This document shows, piece after piece, positions 1,107-30,976 of a stretch of 64,000 bases of DNA. The DNA lies in the NCBI GenBank assembly GCA_028702535.1, contig JAQVOR010000001.1, positions 11,470 to 75,469 on the forward strand, written 5' to 3'. The translations under genes were made by a program, and so were the position numbers. Under the pieces are notes generated by a model. That model was not told the origin of the DNA. It worked only from the letters and a program-made list of their open reading frames with translations, and did not search any database. The number at the start of each line of letters is the position of its first letter. Position 1 is the first letter of the stretch. This stretch comes from Bacteroidales bacterium. Its GTDB lineage: Bacteria; Bacteroidota; Bacteroidia; Bacteroidales; ML635J-15.

Positions 1107-1337
1107 TTAAACAGATACCACTTCTTTTACTTCAGGGACATCTTTTTTTAGTTTATCTTCGACACCAAGTTTTAGAGTTTGAACACTAAAAGGGCATGAT
1201 CCACAAGCTCCTAAAAGTTTAACTCTAACAATAAAGTCAGGAGTAACTTCAACTAGGCTAATATCGCCACCATCAGCTTGAAGAAAAGGTCTTACTTCTT
1301 CAATTGATTTCTCTATTCTCTTTATTATTTCTTCCAT
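1107..1337 (-). CDS. NifU-like (Nfu-type) Fe-S cluster domain protein
   Basis: 76-aa ORF with ...RPFLQADGGDISLVEV...LLGACGSCPFS..., including the CxxC motif of the NifU C-terminal domain. Confidence 0.8.
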   Translation of the reverse strand: MEEIIKRIEKSIEEVRPFLQADGGDISLVEVTPDFIVRVKLLGACGSCPFSVQTLKLGVEDKLKKDVPEVKEVVSV

Positions 1338-2498: not shown

Positions 2499-3788
2499 TT
2501 ATAAACTCCAATAAGTTAAATCCTTAATTTTATTTTGAAAAGCTCCTTTAATGTCAATTAGTATTCCATTTTCGTTTGATAGTTCTTTAAAATAAGATTC
2601 ATCAAAATTGACATACTGTTTATGATTAACGGCAACGATTATTGCGTCATATTTCCCACTAGGTTTTTCAGATATCTCTACATCGTACTCTTTTATTACT
2701 TCGGAGGCATCGGCATAAGCATCAACCACATCGTAATGTACGTTATACTTTTTTAGTTCATCAAGAATATCTATAACTCTAGAGTTACGAATGTCGGTAA
2801 CATTTTCTTTAAAAGTCATGCCCATAACAAGCACACGTGATTTAGTAATTTCTTTCTTTTTAGAAATAATAAGTTTAACAGTTTTACTTGCCACATACGC
2901 ACCCATACCATCGTTAATTGCTCGTCCCGAATTTATCATACGAGCATGATAACCAAGTTCTTTTGCTTTATGAAGTAAATAGTATGGGTCAACGCCTATA
3001 CAATGTCCACCAACGAGGCCAGGAATAAAATTAAGAAAATTCCATTTGGTAGCTGCTGCTTCAATAACTTCAAATGTATTGATATTCATGTAGTCGAAAA
3101 TCATTGATAATTCGTTCATCAAAGCAATATTAACATCACGTTGTGTGTTTTCAATTATTTTTGCAGCTTCGGCAACTTTAATTGAGCTTGCACGATGCAC
3201 ACCTGCTTTGATTATTATTTCGTAAATTTTTGCAATATTTTCGGCAGATACTACATCACAACCCGATGATATTTTTACAATATTTGTTAATGTATGAACT
3301 TTGTCTCCAGGATTAATACGCTCAGGTGAAAAACCAACTTTAAAGTCTTCAATGAATTTTAATCCTGACATTTGCTCAAGAACAGGGACACAGTCTTCCT
3401 CGGTGCATCCAGGATATACTGTCGATTCGTAAACAACATAATCTCCTTTTTTTAATATTTTACCTAATGTTTTTGATGCTTTGAGTACTGGAGTGAGGTC
3501 GGGTAAATTATGGTCGTCGATAGGTGTTGGAACAGCAACTATGTGAAAATGACAATCTTTGAGGTCTTCGGGGTTTGCCGTAAACATTATATCACAATTT
3601 TCAAACTCAGCTGGAGCTAATTCATTACTTGGATCAATTCCTTTTTTCATCATCTCAATTCTTTCGGCTTTTATGTCGAAACCGACAACCTTAACATGCT
3701 TAGCAAACTCTAAAGCAATTGGTAATCCTACGTATCCAAGACCTATTACAGATATTTTCTTTTCTTTTTTTATGATTGAATTATACAT
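2499..3788 (-). CDS. Nucleotide-sugar 6-dehydrogenase (UDP-N-acetylhexosamine dehydrogenase, WbpA/TviB/WecC-like)
   Basis: 429-aa ORF with an N-terminal Rossmann motif (VIGLGYVGLP), the catalytic-Cys region GGHCIG and the UDPG_MGDP_dh architecture. Confidence 0.8.
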   Translation of the reverse strand: MYNSIIKKEKKISVIGLGYVGLPIALEFAKHVKVVGFDIKAERIEMMKKGIDPSNELAPAEFENCDIMFTANPEDLKDCHFHIVAVPTPIDDHNLPDLTPVLKASKTLGKILKKGDYVVYESTVYPGCTEEDCVPVLEQMSGLKFIEDFKVGFSPERINPGDKVHTLTNIVKISSGCDVVSAENIAKIYEIIIKAGVHRASSIKVAEAAKIIENTQRDVNIALMNELSMIFDYMNINTFEVIEAAATKWNFLNFIPGLVGGHCIGVDPYYLLHKAKELGYHARMINSGRAINDGMGAYVASKTVKLIISKKKEITKSRVLVMGMTFKENVTDIRNSRVIDILDELKKYNVHYDVVDAYADASEVIKEYDVEISEKPSGKYDAIIVAVNHKQYVNFDESYFKELSNENGILIDIKGAFQNKIKDLTYWSL

Positions 3789-3850: not shown

Positions 3851-4801
3851 TCAAAATGTTTTTTTTAATAATGGGTGATATTCTCCTTTGATGCCAATCG
3901 CAACGGCATTTCGGATATCATAAACCATATTTAATGAGTTACGAGCATCTTGCAATCCAAAACCGTTTCCAGCTAAAATATGCTTGTAGCTTTCGGTATG
4001 CAAATCAGTAAATCCATCGCTAAACTCTATTTCTTGATTTTCTAATTTAATTGAGCGATATGTTCTCTGTCCTTTGGCTTTAATATCATCTGGGAGCATA
4101 TTCTCATCTATTGATAAAACCCAACGTACTCTTGCTCGTTCGAGCTCAAGAAAACCAGCTGCTTTGTCTTTTTCACTTAATTGAACAATACTAGATTTTA
4201 CTTTTCCAAAAATCCAGCTTAACATATCAAAAAAGTGAACTCCAATATTTGTGGCTATACCGCCCGATTTTTGTATATCGCCTTTCCATGAATAATGATA
4301 CCATTTACCACGCGAAGTTATGTATGCTAAATCAATATCATAAATCTTATCTTTTGGTCCGTTATCAATTTTATTTTTTAATTCAATAATTGATTTATGC
4401 AAACGTAATTGTAAGATATTGTAAATTTTATTGCCAGTTTCTTTTTCAATTTCTTCGAGAGCGTCAATATTCCAAGGGTTTAACACTAATGGTTTTTCGC
4501 ATATTGCGTTTGCCTTGTGTCTAAGTGCAAATCTTATATGCGAGTCGTGTAAATAGTTTGGAGAGCATATACTTACATAGTCAATTTTTTTATCTGTACG
4601 GCTCAATTTATCAACATGTCTTTCGAATCTTTCAAATTCATGAAAAAAGTCTGCTTCTGGAAAATGAGCATCCAAAAAACCCACACTGTCAAAAGGATCG
4701 AGTGTTGCGATTAAGTTATTTCCTGTTTCTTTGATAGCTTTTACGTGCCTAAGGGCAATGTATCCGCCAACACCTACAAGTGCAAAATTTATATTTGACA
4801 T
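3851..4801 (-). CDS. Gfo/Idh/MocA-family oxidoreductase (WbpB-like sugar-nucleotide 3-dehydrogenase)
   Basis: 316-aa ORF with N-terminal ALVGVGGYIALRHVKAI and the EKP motif (CEKPL). It lies between the dehydrogenase and the acetyltransferase. Confidence 0.7.
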   Translation of the reverse strand: MSNINFALVGVGGYIALRHVKAIKETGNNLIATLDPFDSVGFLDAHFPEADFFHEFERFERHVDKLSRTDKKIDYVSICSPNYLHDSHIRFALRHKANAICEKPLVLNPWNIDALEEIEKETGNKIYNILQLRLHKSIIELKNKIDNGPKDKIYDIDLAYITSRGKWYHYSWKGDIQKSGGIATNIGVHFFDMLSWIFGKVKSSIVQLSEKDKAAGFLELERARVRWVLSIDENMLPDDIKAKGQRTYRSIKLENQEIEFSDGFTDLHTESYKHILAGNGFGLQDARNSLNMVYDIRNAVAIGIKGEYHPLLKKTF

Positions 4802-4804
4802 ACA

Positions 4805-5380
4805 CTAAAGTTTTGTTATTACATTATTTTTAAATTGATACTTATCTTTACTCTCGGGACATATTGCAATTCCGTTGTCATCAAATTTGAGACGATGCCC
4901 GTATTCACTCATCCATCCTTTTTGTATGGCAGGATTACCAACTACAAGAGCATAATCGGGAACTTCTTTTGTAACAACTGCACCAGCTCCAATAAACGCA
5001 AAACGTCCAATATTATGCCCACAAACGATAGTTGCATTTGCTCCAATAGTTGCTCCATGTTTAACAGTAGTTTTTGTATATTCGCCACGTCTGTTTACTG
5101 CACTTCGTGGATTGCTTACATTTGTAAATACCATCGATGGACCCAAAAAAACATCATCTTCACAAATAACTCCTGTGTATATGGAGACATTGTTTTGAAC
5201 TTTTACATTGTTTCCTAATATAACATCTGGCGAAACCACAACATTTTGACCTATATTACAATTACGTCCCAGTTTGCAATTAGACATAATATGCGAAAAA
5301 TGCCAGATTTTTGTTCCGTCACCAATTTCACAATTCTCGTCAATAATAGCAGTCTCGTGAGCAAAATAATTAATACTCAT
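4805..5380 (-). CDS. Hexapeptide-repeat (left-handed beta-helix) N-acetyltransferase, WbpD-like
   Basis: 191-aa ORF with repeated [LIV]G-x4 hexapeptides (IGDGTKI, IGQNVVV, LGNNVKV, IGANATI). Its stop is 4 nt from the start of the downstream oxidoreductase gene. Confidence 0.7.
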   Translation of the reverse strand: MSINYFAHETAIIDENCEIGDGTKIWHFSHIMSNCKLGRNCNIGQNVVVSPDVILGNNVKVQNNVSIYTGVICEDDVFLGPSMVFTNVSNPRSAVNRRGEYTKTTVKHGATIGANATIVCGHNIGRFAFIGAGAVVTKEVPDYALVVGNPAIQKGWMSEYGHRLKFDDNGIAICPESKDKYQFKNNVITKL

Positions 5381-9258: not shown

Positions 9259-9513
9259 ATGAATATTTTTATTGGAAATTTACCTTATACAATTAAGGCA
9301 AATGATTTGAAAAGTTTTTTTGAGGAATACGGAGAAGTCGAGTCTGCAAAAATTATTACAGACAGAGATACTGGTAGAAGTAAAGGCTTTGGTTTTATCG
9401 AAATGTTAAACGATGATGCTGCTCTAAAATCTATCGAAGAACTTAATGGAGCCGAACTTGACGGTAGAACAATTGTTGTTAATCAAGCAAAAGAAAGACA
9501 AGGCGGAAGATAA
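9259..9513 (+). CDS. RRM-type RNA-binding protein
   Basis: 84-aa ORF with RNP2 (NIFIGNL) and RNP1 (KGFGFIEM) motifs. Confidence 0.85.
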   Translation: MNIFIGNLPYTIKANDLKSFFEEYGEVESAKIITDRDTGRSKGFGFIEMLNDDAALKSIEELNGAELDGRTIVVNQAKERQGGR

Positions 9514-9575
9514 TTGTAAAGAAAACATAAAGTTTGTGAGTTCTTACTCTTCGCTTAAACGCTATTTTCTTATCT

Positions 9576-9615
9576 AAGGGTTTGTCAAACAATAAAGTAT
9601 GCAGAATTAATGAGG
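9576..9615 (+). repeat. Dispersed ~40-nt element, copy A
   Basis: Sequence AAGGGTTTGTCAAACAATAAAGTATGCAGAATTAATGAGG. It is near-identical to the inverted copy at 29697-29736 and the direct copy at 30428-30466. Confidence 0.85.
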
Positions 9616-10045
9616 ATTTTGTTGTTTTTTATGACGCAAAATTTAGCTAATAGTTTATCATTTAACAATACCTACCTGTAATTTAAGTTTGGCTTGCTCA
9701 GGTTACTCAATATATTTGAGCAAATAAAACTTAATATTATGGAAAACATATAGTGCAAATTTTAAATCTCAATACTGAGTAACTTATTCTGATGCTTAAA
9801 AAAATTTTGGCAAATGAGTGATAAGTGTATTATTAATAATATCGAATTGGTGCTATTGTGATGAACCTTAACACGAAGAAGATATTGAAGCATAGCTAAA
9901 TGATCTTAATCGAATAAAAAAGGCTTTGTTAAACTCGAATGTAAAAACCTTACGTTTTTTTTACTATAAATGCACATGTTGTATAAAATATTTGTAACAT
10001 TACAAAAAATAATACGTAACAAGCATTACAATCAAAAATGAAGTA

Positions 10046-18691: not shown

Positions 18692-18790
18692 TATTTTTGC
18701 AATGTTTTAGTGGAAGGATTTGGATGCTTGCAACCACAAATAAAAAATGCTAAAAAACAGTCTTGCCTACATCCTCATAATCCTTAATTA
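18692..18790 (+). promoter_or_regulatory. metK promoter -7 box plus structured leader (candidate SAM-responsive element)
   Basis: - TATTTTTG at 18692-18699 matches TAnnTTTG.
- The leader has UGUUUU (18703-08) pairing with AAAACA (18754-59).
- That stem encloses a GUGG...CCAC hairpin (18710-13 / 18734-37) with GGAAGGA, GCAACC and UGCUAA motifs.
- An alternative pairing joins AAGGAUU/GGAUG (18714-25) with CAUCC...AAUCCUU (18769-85). Confidence 0.3.
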
Positions 18791-28254: not shown

Positions 28255-29613
28255 TTAATTAATTATCAATTGATCGGCAAACTTTACAAAATCTATTCCA
28301 TTAAAATTGCCACTACTCATCATTAAAAGGTTTGTGTTACTAAAATTTTGCTCCGTAAGGAAGTTTTTAAGTTTTTTTGTATCGGTAAACACGATTGTCT
28401 CTCTACCAAAGGATTCTTCGACAAATTTTTCTTCTATTTCGGGCAATTTTTTATGTTTCAGCACATCGTGATTGTAATATACAATTGCTATATCTGCATT
28501 TTTCATACAATTTTTATACTGAGGGATAAAGTTTTTTTGGAGGCTCGAAAATGTATGTAATTCAATGCAGGCTATAAGTTTTCGTTGTGGGTATTTTTGC
28601 TTCAAAGCATTAATTGTTGCTTTTAATTTTGACGGTGCATGTGCAAAATCAATATAAAAACTGGTATTATCTGTTTCTTTGATTAGCTGAAGCCTTTTTG
28701 CCGCTCCTTCGAAGTTGTGAATAGTTTCCCAAAACTGTGTTTCGCTTACTCCAGCTTCGATACATGCCAAACGTGCTGCATTTATATTTTGCATATTATG
28801 GTCGCCAAAAACACTCATTTTGTAAATTTTATTTTCAAATTTCACACAAACTTGCGAGTTTTCATCAGTAAAGTATTCGTATTTATTGTATGAATTAGAT
28901 ATAATTTTATCATTTTTATTTGCAATTTTCTTTAAATATTCGTCTTCCTCGAACCAGAAAAGTTTCCCCTTATCTTCTATTTTATTGATAAAAATCTCAA
29001 ATTGTTTAACATAATTGTCAAATGTCGGAAAAACGTTAATGTGATCCCAAGCTATGCCAGTCAAAATAGCAATATGTGGTTTGTACCAGTGAAATTTTGG
29101 TGTAAGATCAATAGGTGATGATAAATATTCATCTCCTTCGATGACTGCAATTTTATTATTTTCTTCGAGTTGAACCATAGTTTCAAAGCTTTTAATATTG
29201 GCTCCAACCATATAATCAAATTTTACATCTGTGCTTTTAAGAACATGCATTATCATTGATGTAATTGTAGTTTTTCCATGACTGCCCCCAACTACAATTC
29301 GTTTTTTATTTTTTGTTTGCTCGTAGAGATATTCAGGATAAGAATATATTTGAAGTTTGAGTTCTTGTGCTCGTAAAAGTTCGGGATTATCTTTTCGGGC
29401 ATGCATTCCCAAAATAATTACATCAATTTTATCATTTATGTTTTCGGGAAACCAGCCAAATTCTTTTGGTAATAAATTATATTTATCAAGTCTTGATTTT
29501 GATGGTTCAAATATCTCATCATCTGAGCCAGTAATAATGCACCCTTTTTTGTAAAGTGCAATTGCCAAATTGTGCATTGCAGCACCTCCGATAGCTATAA
29601 AATGTATTTTCAT
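28255..29613 (-). CDS. mpl: Mur-ligase family protein, Mpl-like (UDP-MurNAc:tripeptide ligase)
   Basis: 452-aa ORF: MKIHFIAIGGAAMHNLA... plus GSHGKTTITSM. It is a second MurC-like paralogue outside the dcw cluster, which holds the true murC. Confidence 0.7.
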   Translation of the reverse strand: MKIHFIAIGGAAMHNLAIALYKKGCIITGSDDEIFEPSKSRLDKYNLLPKEFGWFPENINDKIDVIILGMHARKDNPELLRAQELKLQIYSYPEYLYEQTKNKKRIVVGGSHGKTTITSMIMHVLKSTDVKFDYMVGANIKSFETMVQLEENNKIAVIEGDEYLSSPIDLTPKFHWYKPHIAILTGIAWDHINVFPTFDNYVKQFEIFINKIEDKGKLFWFEEDEYLKKIANKNDKIISNSYNKYEYFTDENSQVCVKFENKIYKMSVFGDHNMQNINAARLACIEAGVSETQFWETIHNFEGAAKRLQLIKETDNTSFYIDFAHAPSKLKATINALKQKYPQRKLIACIELHTFSSLQKNFIPQYKNCMKNADIAIVYYNHDVLKHKKLPEIEEKFVEESFGRETIVFTDTKKLKNFLTEQNFSNTNLLMMSSGNFNGIDFVKFADQLIIN

Positions 29614-29696
29614 TATTACGTACTTTAAGTGTTTAGAGTTGAATCGAGTGATATAAAAAACAGCTGAATCTTAGGGATTGTAAAACAATAAACTAG

Positions 29697-29736
29697 CTTC
29701 ATCAATTCTGCATACTTTATTATTTGACAAACCCTT
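29697..29736 (-). repeat. Dispersed ~40-nt element, copy B (inverted)
   Basis: The reverse complement reads AAGGGTTTGTCAAATAATAAAGTATGCAGAATTGATGAAG. It begins 12 nt downstream of the gmhA stop and ends 84 nt upstream of the mpl start. Confidence 0.85.
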
Positions 29737-29747
29737 AACTCCGAATC

Positions 29748-30317
29748 TTAATCATTTATGTTGCTCTCAATATAATCAATCAAACTATGAATAACTTTTA
29801 TATGAATTTCTTGGACTCTGTCGGAGTATTTTGATTTTGGTGCTCGAATTTCTACATCTGCAAGTTCTTTAATTTTTCCGCCATCATTACCAGTAAGAGC
29901 AATGATTTTAAGACCTTTTTCTTTAGCAGTTTTCGCAGCTTCAACTACATTAGCTGAGTTTCCGCTTGTACTGATTGCTAATAGAATATCTCCTTTATTT
30001 CCAAGAGCTTCGATATATCTCGAAAAAATCAAATCAAATCCAAAATCGTTTGCAGTGCAAGTAATATGGGAAGGGTCGCTTATGGCAATTGCTGGAATAG
30101 CTCGACGTTTCTCACGAAAATTCCCTGTAAGCTCTTCGGCAAAATGCATGGCATCGCTCATTGAACCACCGTTGCCGCAACTAATAACCTTTCCACCATT
30201 TTTAATAGAGCTTACAATTAGTTGTCCTGCTTGTTCAATTTTTTCAAAATTGTCCTTGTTTTGAATAAACTCGTCAAGAGTTTTTTTTGCTTCGATAAAA
30301 TGTTGGCTGATGTCCAT
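29748..30317 (-). CDS. gmhA: D-sedoheptulose-7-phosphate isomerase (SIS domain)
   Basis: The ATG at 30317 gives [12 protein letters not shown]... with [16 protein letters not shown] and AISTSGNS. The track start at 30332 is a TTG lying inside the predicted -7 box. Confidence 0.8.
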
Positions 30318-30329
30318 TTTGTTTTTTTT

Positions 30330-30360
30330 CAAAAATACACTTTAGTTTTTTAGTATCAAA
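30330..30360 (-). promoter_or_regulatory. Candidate Bacteroidota-type promoter for gmhA (TTTG-N19-TATTTTTG)
   Basis: On the minus strand, TTTG (30360-30357) is followed by a 19-nt spacer and TATTTTTG (30337-30330). The box ends 12 nt upstream of the gmhA ATG. Confidence 0.4.
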
Positions 30361-30427
30361 AAATAATTAAAAATCTGCAATAATTTTTATTACGGCAAAA
30401 TGAACAAAAACTAAAACCCAAATACTA

Positions 30428-30466
30428 TGAGTTTGTCAAATAATAAAGTATTCAGAATTGACGAAG
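30428..30466 (+). repeat. Dispersed ~40-nt element, copy C (direct)
   Basis: Sequence ATGAGTTTGTCAAATAATAAAGTATTCAGAATTGACGAAG, in the gmhA-rpiB intergenic region. It is inverted relative to copy B. Confidence 0.85.
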
Positions 30467-30541
30467 CTCTTTTGTTAAATTTGTCGTTAACACAACCAAC
30501 AATTGGAATTATGGCAATGCTCACTATGAAAAAAAATATAC

Positions 30542-30976
30542 CTACCCAATTGGTATTTTATTTATTCTATTAATATGTCTTCCACCTTCGAAATCTGTAC
30601 TCAAAAATATCTTAACGATTTCTTTTGCCAATTCTTCGGAAATAAATCTTGCAGGTAAAGCACAAATATTTGCATTATTATGTAATCGAGCAAGCTCCGA
30701 TATTTCTTTATTCCAGCATAAAGCAGATCTTATGCCCTGATGCTTATTTACCGTCATATTTATACCGTTTCCACTTCCGCAAATAGAAATACCATAATCA
30801 CAATCTTTATTTTCGATAGCATTTGCAAGTGGATGAGCAAAATCGGGATAATCGCAACTATCAAGAGACCAAGTTCCAAAGTCCTTGATTTGATATCCAA
30901 GAGTTGTTACAAACTCAATAAGTTTATTTTTGAGTATAAATCCAGCGTGGTCGCAAGCAAATCCAATTGTTTTCAT
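30542..30976 (-). CDS. rpiB: Ribose-5-phosphate isomerase B
   Basis: 144-aa ORF: MKTIGFACDHAGF...CGSGNGINMTVNKH..., the RpiB/LacAB family. Confidence 0.85.
   Translation of the reverse strand: MKTIGFACDHAGFILKNKLIEFVTTLGYQIKDFGTWSLDSCDYPDFAHPLANAIENKDCDYGISICGSGNGINMTVNKHQGIRSALCWNKEISELARLHNNANICALPARFISEELAKEIVKIFLSTDFEGGRHINRINKIPIG

Follow-up and report, generated by a model that had tools for sequence, protein, structure and literature searches.

A 39-nt repeat on either side of gmhA in an uncultured Bacteroidales genome is the terminal inverted repeat of a MITE family probably mobilised by ISAzo13-family insertion sequences

[quoted passage not shown] We regard it as very likely that its three copies in the window, designated A, B and C, arose by independent insertions of this family, that the family is mobilised in trans by ISAzo13 elements and that the bracketing of the gene gmhA by copies B and C is coincidental. 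The directly observed features that bear on this reading are the structure of the repeat, its terminal repeats, the target-site duplications, the distribution of the copies, their absence from the site in relatives and the tips in common with ISAzo13 elements.

A degenerate pattern search of the window, allowing up to 3 mismatches, placed the 39-mer at 9577-9615 (+, copy A), 29697-29735 (-, copy B) and 30428-30466 (+, copy C), with 0, 0 and 2 mismatches, respectively. None of 100 dinucleotide-preserving shuffles matched the pattern, confirming what an earlier note on this DNA had reported, namely three copies beyond chance expectation, with coordinates at most 1 base off. Exactly three matches in the window (9578-9672, 29734-29662 and 30429-30477), and no fourth copy, were returned by an nhmmer profile of the 161-bp element described below, and in these matches the similarity among the copies ran past 39 nt. 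Copy A lies after a gene for an RRM-type RNA-binding protein (9259-9513) and before a gene for a large PAS/response-regulator protein. Since the gene order on the minus strand is rpiB (30542-30976), gmhA (29748-30332) and mpl (28255-29613), copy C is in the rpiB-gmhA spacer and copy B in the gmhA-mpl spacer. As the earlier note had also stated, copies B and C, which lie ~690 bp apart, have opposite orientations and enclose gmhA (D-sedoheptulose 7-phosphate isomerase; 29748-30332, -) as the sole gene. The note did not recognise the element as a named RNA family, and this likewise agrees with the Rfam scans: at the gathering threshold, the scan of the whole window gave no match at the copies, and at E<=10 the scans around all three copies placed over them a single chance-level match to a lncRNA fragment (11 bits, E=5.9), on copy C. 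A SAM-II riboswitch elsewhere in the window was the sole match at the gathering threshold.

In its full form the MITE is 161 bp long and non-coding (GGGTTTGTCAAATAATAAAGTATGCAGAATTGACGAAG ... TTTATTGTTTGACAATCCC). The terminal inverted repeats are imperfect and ~36 nt in length (left, GGGTTTGTCAAATAATAAAGTATGCAGAATTGAC; right, GGGATTGTCAAACAATAAA...), the terminal 19-mer is GGGWTTGTCAAAYAATAAA, and every complete copy is bounded by GGGTTTGTCAAATAATAAA at one end and by GGGATTGTCAAACAATAAA, in inverted orientation, at the other. A one-genome-per-species scan, queried with the arm/loop junction of the repeat, yielded 11 true matches in four other Bacteroidales MAGs, and in most of these the similarity extended for ~160 nt, closing with the first ~20-36 nt in inverted form. 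When a metagenome scan was queried with the terminal 19-mer, at least 115 loci were obtained, and at least about 25 of them are further copies of the MITE; many others, among them the ERZ1023xxx locus, a marine locus and a contig-end repeat of Ga0209278, represent unrelated loci or other repeat families and were left out of the copy counts. The window, the four MAGs and several metagenomes together gave at least 37 distinct insertion sites. Among the matches listed, 18 copies have both ends, with sizes of 161 bp (7 copies), 61 bp (6), 184 bp (3), 207 bp (1) and 255 bp (1), and these size classes are typical insertion and deletion derivatives. In the loci examined, no ORF was present inside or beside the copies and no transposase adjoined them. 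The viral-contig scan gave 0 matches, and among PLSDB plasmids and INPHARED phages the 161-bp element had no blastn match. Full-length copies are 86-96% identical across MAGs, compared to 78-87% for the gmhA proteins of the same lineages, indicating that the family is younger than the divergence of its hosts or moves between them.

The 3-nt flanks of the 18 complete copies among the matches listed were TAA/TAA in 8 cases, TTA/TTA in 6 and mismatched in 4; the pair TAA/TTA was found in none of the 18. Had the trinucleotide belonged to the inverted repeat, a left TAA would be paired with a right TTA; since all 14 informative flanks are instead concordant and direct, the trinucleotide is a 3-bp TWA target-site duplication. 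Every one of the 37 distinct copies among the matches listed is intergenic, and these copies lie beside unrelated genes in every gene configuration (9 -/-, 8 +/+, 8 convergent and 4 divergent). Where the neighbouring genes are co-directional, the element has their orientation in 10 cases and the opposite orientation in 7, and therefore no bias was evident. The survey thus revealed a common MITE-type filler without preference for orientation or gene, which is the outcome that the earlier note had itself named as speaking against a special role of the repeat. The terminal repeats, duplications, sizes and placement are defining properties of a MITE: the element is short and non-coding, has terminal inverted repeats and a duplication of fixed length, occurs at many unrelated loci and has ends in common with an autonomous element. 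The proposal that the repeats are mobile-element ends or protein-binding sites therefore stands to the extent that the 39-mer, as the terminal inverted repeat of a transposon, is a presumed transposase-binding site; the gmhA cassette that went with it does not, as described below.

In the window, copy B (29674-29734, -) is an intact mini-MITE of 61 bp that consists of the left and right terminal inverted repeats; the left repeat has its tip at 29734, and both terminal 19-mers have 0 mismatches. An inverted partial copy at 29674-29695 (+; repeat family D7, given by the repeat finder as 29668-29695), which the earlier note had missed, abuts the 39-mer at this site, so that site B as a whole is a complete element of 61 bp bearing a terminal inverted repeat at each end. 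Its target-site duplication reads TAA on the minus strand (TTA on +) at 29735-29737 and again at 29671-29673. The RNA of copy B is predicted to fold into a 24-bp hairpin (-23.2 kcal/mol, z=-3.05). The 61-bp form was also found at five other unrelated loci, and it may transpose as such or recur by deletion between the microhomologies TTGTTGTTT and TTATTGTTT. Copy A (9578-9672, +; nhmmer E=4e-16) is a 95-bp internally deleted copy that retains the left terminal inverted repeat and element positions 1-80 and then passes into a degenerate right repeat, TTTATCATTTAACAATACC. Its repeat-like right end is at 9654-9672, and it is flanked by TAA (9575-9577) and TAC (9673-9675). The sister MAG binchicken_co59_69 has the same insertion at this site (L149), in the form of a 115-bp version with TAA/TAA flanks. 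On the comparison of these two sequences, copy A predates the split of the two lineages and is decaying independently in each. Copy C (30429-30477, +; nhmmer E=4.5e-10) is a decayed left end with element positions 3-49; its tip is GAG and not GGG, its left flank is TAT, and it is the most decayed of the three. When a right end of copy C was sought, just a weak resemblance (7 of 13 positions) was found, and copy C was therefore treated as truncated or decayed. The spacer position occupied by copy C is also a synteny breakpoint.

Conservation of the 39-mer could alternatively mean that it is an operator for a host protein, with the palindromic core TTTG-N-CAAA, or a small structured RNA family, either co-opted from the mobile element or unrelated to it. 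The 39-mer is indeed the best-conserved part of the truncated copies (copy C, L014, L112 and L120), copy A has been kept at one site in both lineages, 35 of 39 bases of its left repeat being identical (~90%), and the sense strand folds better than the antisense strand. In the full-length copies, however, conservation is spread across the entire 161 bp, and the DNA on either side of copy A shows fair conservation as well. The two arms of the repeat differ systematically at position 4, with T on the left and A on the right, a pattern consistent with two transposase sites rather than with selection for pairing. The neighbouring genes have no common function, the orientation of the copies is random, Rfam gave no match, and the duplications and the deletion series show transposition. 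We consider a host motif of either kind very improbable. Under transposition as a MITE, the strong conservation of the 39-mer would reflect transposase binding and recent spread and not host function; we infer that the MITE lacks a host function, and the persistence of copy A at one site with its left repeat conserved leaves some room for host co-option. A CRISPR leader, an omega-RNA and an insertion sequence end with a downstream gene had also been considered and were dropped, since no ORF follows the element in L002, L013 or L014.

In order to identify a mobilising partner, inverted pairs of the 19-mer 0.45-4 kb apart were searched for in every fetched locus. Locus L059 contains, at 85-1550, a 1466-bp insertion sequence with the ends GGGATTATCAAAAAATAAA and GGGATTGTCAAACAATAAATACGTCAATTTTG, the latter being an exact match to the 19-mer, and its right end resembles the right end of the MITE past the 19-mer. 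The single ORF of this element (429 aa) encodes an ISAzo13 transposase (Pfam PF07592, 9e-138; NCBIfam NF033519, 574 bits). A second ISAzo13 element, at locus L103, is truncated and carries the exact 19-mer together with a TAA flank; among the matches listed, no coding element other than these two ISAzo13 elements bore the 19-mer as an exact tip. Homologues of the L059 transposase (65-74% identity) are encoded in elements with the related tips GGGATTGTCAAAATATAAC, GGAGTTGTCAGAAAATAAT, GAGAATGTTAAAATATAAT and GAGAGTGACAATAAATAAT, and the related ISAzo13 elements at L143, L144, L145 and L147 have GRGWNTGT-type tips and TAA/TAA or TTA/TTA flanks. The flanks were concordant at 4 of the 6 ISAzo13 loci checked, L059 and L146 being discordant (TAA/TTA).

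The ISAzo13 family is reported to generate 3-bp duplications (PMC10045372), as does its eukaryotic relative, Zator (PMC10045372; PMC5718144). On the grounds of the common tips and the 3-bp duplications, the MITE was assigned to the ISAzo13 sphere, and on this comparison ISAzo13-family insertion sequences are its probable mobilising partner. Likeness to ISAzo13 elements extends to the 3-bp TAA/TTA duplications, the GGG/GRG...TGTCAAA tips and the 19-mer, which is identical in the L059 right end and in L103; in contrast to them, the elements of the window are 61-161 bp in length and non-coding, being non-autonomous derivatives or hitch-hikers and not insertion sequences, and no cognate transposase was detected in the window. 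A tblastn search revealed no ISAzo13 transposase in the 64 kb of the window or at the loci that bear the MITE. The sub-terminal sequence of the insertion sequences that carry the 19-mer differs from the MITE left end, and no parent element matching that end beyond the tip or ~30 nt was found among the fetched loci. Excision of the L144 insertion sequence in silico did not restore an uninterrupted fucosidase gene, the upstream fragment stopping before the element, and this result is given no weight. In the mechanism that we propose, a DDE transposase of the ISAzo13 family, supplied in trans to a MITE that has none, would bind the terminal repeats and move the element, which inserts at TWA with duplication of 3 bp.

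The same MITE could instead be moved by an IS5 or PIF/Harbinger-type transposase, as a Tourist-like element with a TWA duplication. This was our first guess, made from the duplication, and both the 3-bp TWA duplication and the GGG-starting tips fit Tourist/PIF-Harbinger elements and some IS5 subgroups. It was superseded once the coding elements that bear the tip turned out to belong to ISAzo13: both elements that bear the exact 19-mer among the matches listed (L059 and L103) encode ISAzo13 transposases, their ISAzo13 relatives show the same TAA/TTA duplications, and no IS5-type element with these tips was present in ~140 loci. A partner of the IS5 or PIF/Harbinger type is therefore very unlikely, and ISAzo13 is kept as the probable one.

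Because copies B and C are inverted and enclose gmhA alone, we considered the earlier note's suggestion that they are the two ends of a composite element with gmhA as cargo. Such an element would need outward-facing tips and one duplication around the whole unit. The tips GGG (29734, copy B) and GAG (30429, copy C) both face inward, toward gmhA, with their flanking trinucleotides on the gmhA side, and consequently gmhA is outside both elements and is not the content of a cassette. Furthermore, copy B is complete and has its own TAA/TAA duplication, and the decay of copy C next to an intact copy B points to different ages. The gmhA-mpl-LEA_2 synteny and the gmhA promoter are also kept in relatives without the elements. 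The cassette interpretation was thus abandoned as extremely improbable.

Among same-species contigs from ~10 samples, copies B and C were present wherever their sites are spanned. The earlier note had proposed a comparison with related strains; in four relatives (L025, L026, L158 and L159), whose gmhA proteins are 78-87% identical to that of the window, the gmhA-mpl spacer has no element. The spacers of these relatives and of the window have in common the sequence AGTTCGGAGTT just after the gmhA stop codon. For two of the four, L025 (MAG STCSWMC_109) and L158 (MAG STF1_21), the MITE is present elsewhere in the MAG. Upstream of gmhA, a Por_Secre_tail gene replaces rpiB in L025, L026 and L159, and the contig of L158 breaks off a short way upstream. 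A base-exact empty site could be reconstructed for neither copy B nor copy C, intergenic DNA being too diverged in the nearest relatives. The B/C arrangement is unique to this species when set against the relatives compared. Overall, the flanking of gmhA by B and C looks coincidental, an intergenic insertion having occurred on either side of a short gene, without forming a functional unit.

The earlier note had further proposed that, in a transcript reading from rpiB through gmhA to mpl, copies B and C could pair, with gmhA looped out, and could serve as a site of RNase III-type processing or as an expression switch. In the minimum-free-energy fold of the 961-nt RNA from the end of rpiB to the start of mpl, 30429-30466 pairs with 29734-29697, and this duplex of ~37 bp between the reverse complement of C and the left arm of B has a predicted energy of -57.6 kcal/mol, compared to -22.4 kcal/mol for the hairpin of copy B on its own. 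Between rpiB and gmhA, no sequence resembling a terminator was detected. Together, these two results indicate that the duplex is physically possible, in a read-through transcript only; the thermodynamic part of the proposal thus holds, and a role as a switch or RNase III site is unsupported.

With regard to that role, gmhA has its own Bacteroidetes-type promoter motif, TTTG-N19-TATTTTTG (TAnnTTTG type; 30330-30360, -), which was identified by a motif scan and lies downstream of copy C, outside the MITE. In the window this motif is contained in a ~60-nt block directly upstream of gmhA that is kept in L025, L026 and L159. Transcripts from this conserved promoter (30360-30330) would not contain copy C. 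The motif scan found no TTTG-N19-21-TAnnTTTG sequence in or beside any copy, the sole such motif being gmhA's own, and the sigma-70 scan was at background level; a promoter function of the 39-mer, which had also been considered, was rejected on these results. Cleavage by RNase III of the ~37-bp dsRNA in a read-through rpiB-gmhA-mpl RNA, or altered expression of gmhA or mpl through it, would be in keeping with the fold, with the lack of a terminator-like site and with the fixation of B and C in every same-species contig that spans their sites, from different samples. However, complementarity is an automatic by-product of two MITE insertions in opposite orientation, the local hairpin of copy B forms co-transcriptionally, within 20 nt, and a paired arrangement around a gene was seen in 0 of the 34 other copies among the matches listed. 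The adjacency of rpiB and gmhA and both insertions are absent from the relatives with 78-87% identical gmhA, which argues against a conserved mechanism. Such an RNA effect on gmhA or mpl is, in our judgement, highly unlikely. We give equally little weight to co-option of the inverted MITE pair, with the C'/B duplex of read-through transcripts undergoing RNase III-type processing or acting as a structural insulator; if this were true, gmhA, a gene of LPS heptose synthesis, would be uncoupled from its neighbours, and two transposon insertions would have given rise to a species-specific regulatory innovation. A functional consequence of the B/C complementarity, or of the location of copy C at a synteny breakpoint, is unsupported, and the finding is real but ordinary.

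Bacterial MITEs such as the Correia elements (CREE) of Neisseria and RUP of Streptococcus pneumoniae are short, non-coding, multi-copy intergenic elements with terminal repeats and duplications of fixed length. If transcribed, they can fold into long hairpins, and those of Correia elements have been reported to be RNase III substrates. The present element is like them in being short, non-coding, multi-copy and intergenic, in its terminal inverted repeats and fixed-length duplication, and in its hairpin potential; it differs in its unrelated sequence, in a duplication of 3-bp TWA instead of TA and in a presumed ISAzo13 partner instead of IS630 or an unknown element. In the MITE, neither a promoter nor an IHF site was identified. 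Among the REP/BIME-type extragenic palindromes, REPs, which are associated with RAYT, are without target-site duplication or terminal-repeat architecture. Although the element is short, intergenic, repeated and hairpin-forming like these, it has clear duplications and a deletion series derived from a 161-bp unit. Tourist MITEs of the PIF/Harbinger-IS5 superfamily are small and have a 3-bp TAA/TTA duplication and GGG tips, and they are eukaryotic or IS5-linked. In contrast, the coding elements that share the tips here are ISAzo13, which belongs to a different DDE superfamily (PMC5718144). The element behaves as bacterial MITEs do, and it can be classed neither with REPs or Rfam RNAs nor with composite transposons. 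No description of the MITE sequence or of ISAzo13-derived MITEs was found in the searchable literature, where the tip string matched unrelated primers alone.

The element therefore represents a previously uncatalogued MITE family in uncultured Bacteroidales of engineered and environmental samples, and its 61-bp mini form is among the smaller bacterial MITEs. For annotation, the MITE should be masked or labelled, so that neither a regulatory motif nor an RNA gene is read into it. For the biology of ISAzo13, the tip GGGWTTGTCAAAYAATAAA and the TWA target are defined for a clade of ISAzo13 elements. With respect to genome evolution, elements of this kind can seed rearrangements and create long-range RNA complementarity.

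The 19-mer tip of the 161-bp MITE was also found in other repeats. A distinct 163-bp MITE family is represented at positions 4484-4646 of locus L119; this element carries the same 19-mer tips (GGGATTGTCAAACAATAAA) as the 161-bp MITE and a TAA duplication, and its GC-rich interior is unrelated to that of the 161-bp MITE. Among the matches listed, 13 contigs (L029, L036, L047, L050, L057, L058, L096, L101, L105, L107, L123, L131, and L138), all from metagenome Ga0209278 except L105, which is from Ga0075157, end approximately 45-75 nt from the same 19-mer, within a common sequence of approximately 130 nt, indicating that their assembly is broken by another repeat family with the 19-mer motif. The conserved block TTAAGGGTTTGTCAAACAATAAATAATCATCAATCGGTTTGTTTTACAAG was found repeatedly across contigs from marine metagenomes (L028, L037, L038, L040, L060, L062, L066, L080, L106, L116, L127, and L135; again among the matches listed) and appears to be one old mini-element, belonging to the same tip family, that is fixed at a single locus.

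The MITE copies in L010 and L014 have in common the ~25 nt directly outside the tip, GATTRATGTGNGNTTTTGAAGATTA (L010, ~1108-1135, minus strand; L014, ~5058-5083, plus strand), which suggests that the MITE inserted into another repeated sequence. At 6690-6744 of L005, a fragment of the right end meets a full-length copy head-to-head at a central TAA common to both, and the two form a near-perfect palindrome (...ACAATCCCTAAGGGTTTGT...), an arrangement that suggests repeated use of one target.

In the window, a hairpin, TTGCTCAGGTTACTCAATATATTTGAGCAA, lies immediately 3' of MITE copy A (~9693-9722, plus strand). It is kept, with altered stem bases, in the orthologous spacer of L149, which has copy A at the same site, and it may serve as a terminator for the gene of the RRM protein, or else be a small RNA. 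A gathering-threshold scan of the whole window against Rfam gave a single match, a SAM-II (long-loop) riboswitch aptamer at 18704-18763 on the plus strand (RF01726; 60.8 bits, gathering score 44).

The gmhA-mpl spacer of relatives contains tandem heptamers, GTTCGGA/GTTACGA (L158, ~640-720, with ~10 units; L159, ~3070-3110), of which a single unit is left in the window, adjoining the insertion point of MITE copy B. On the other side of gmhA, the rpiB-gmhA spacer (30381-30541) contains the decayed copy C. Only in the window's species does rpiB adjoin gmhA, a Por_Secre_tail gene being upstream of gmhA in relatives, and homology picks up again ~45 nt downstream of copy C. Copy C therefore lies inside a synteny breakpoint, and this decayed element may have had a part in the rearrangement there.
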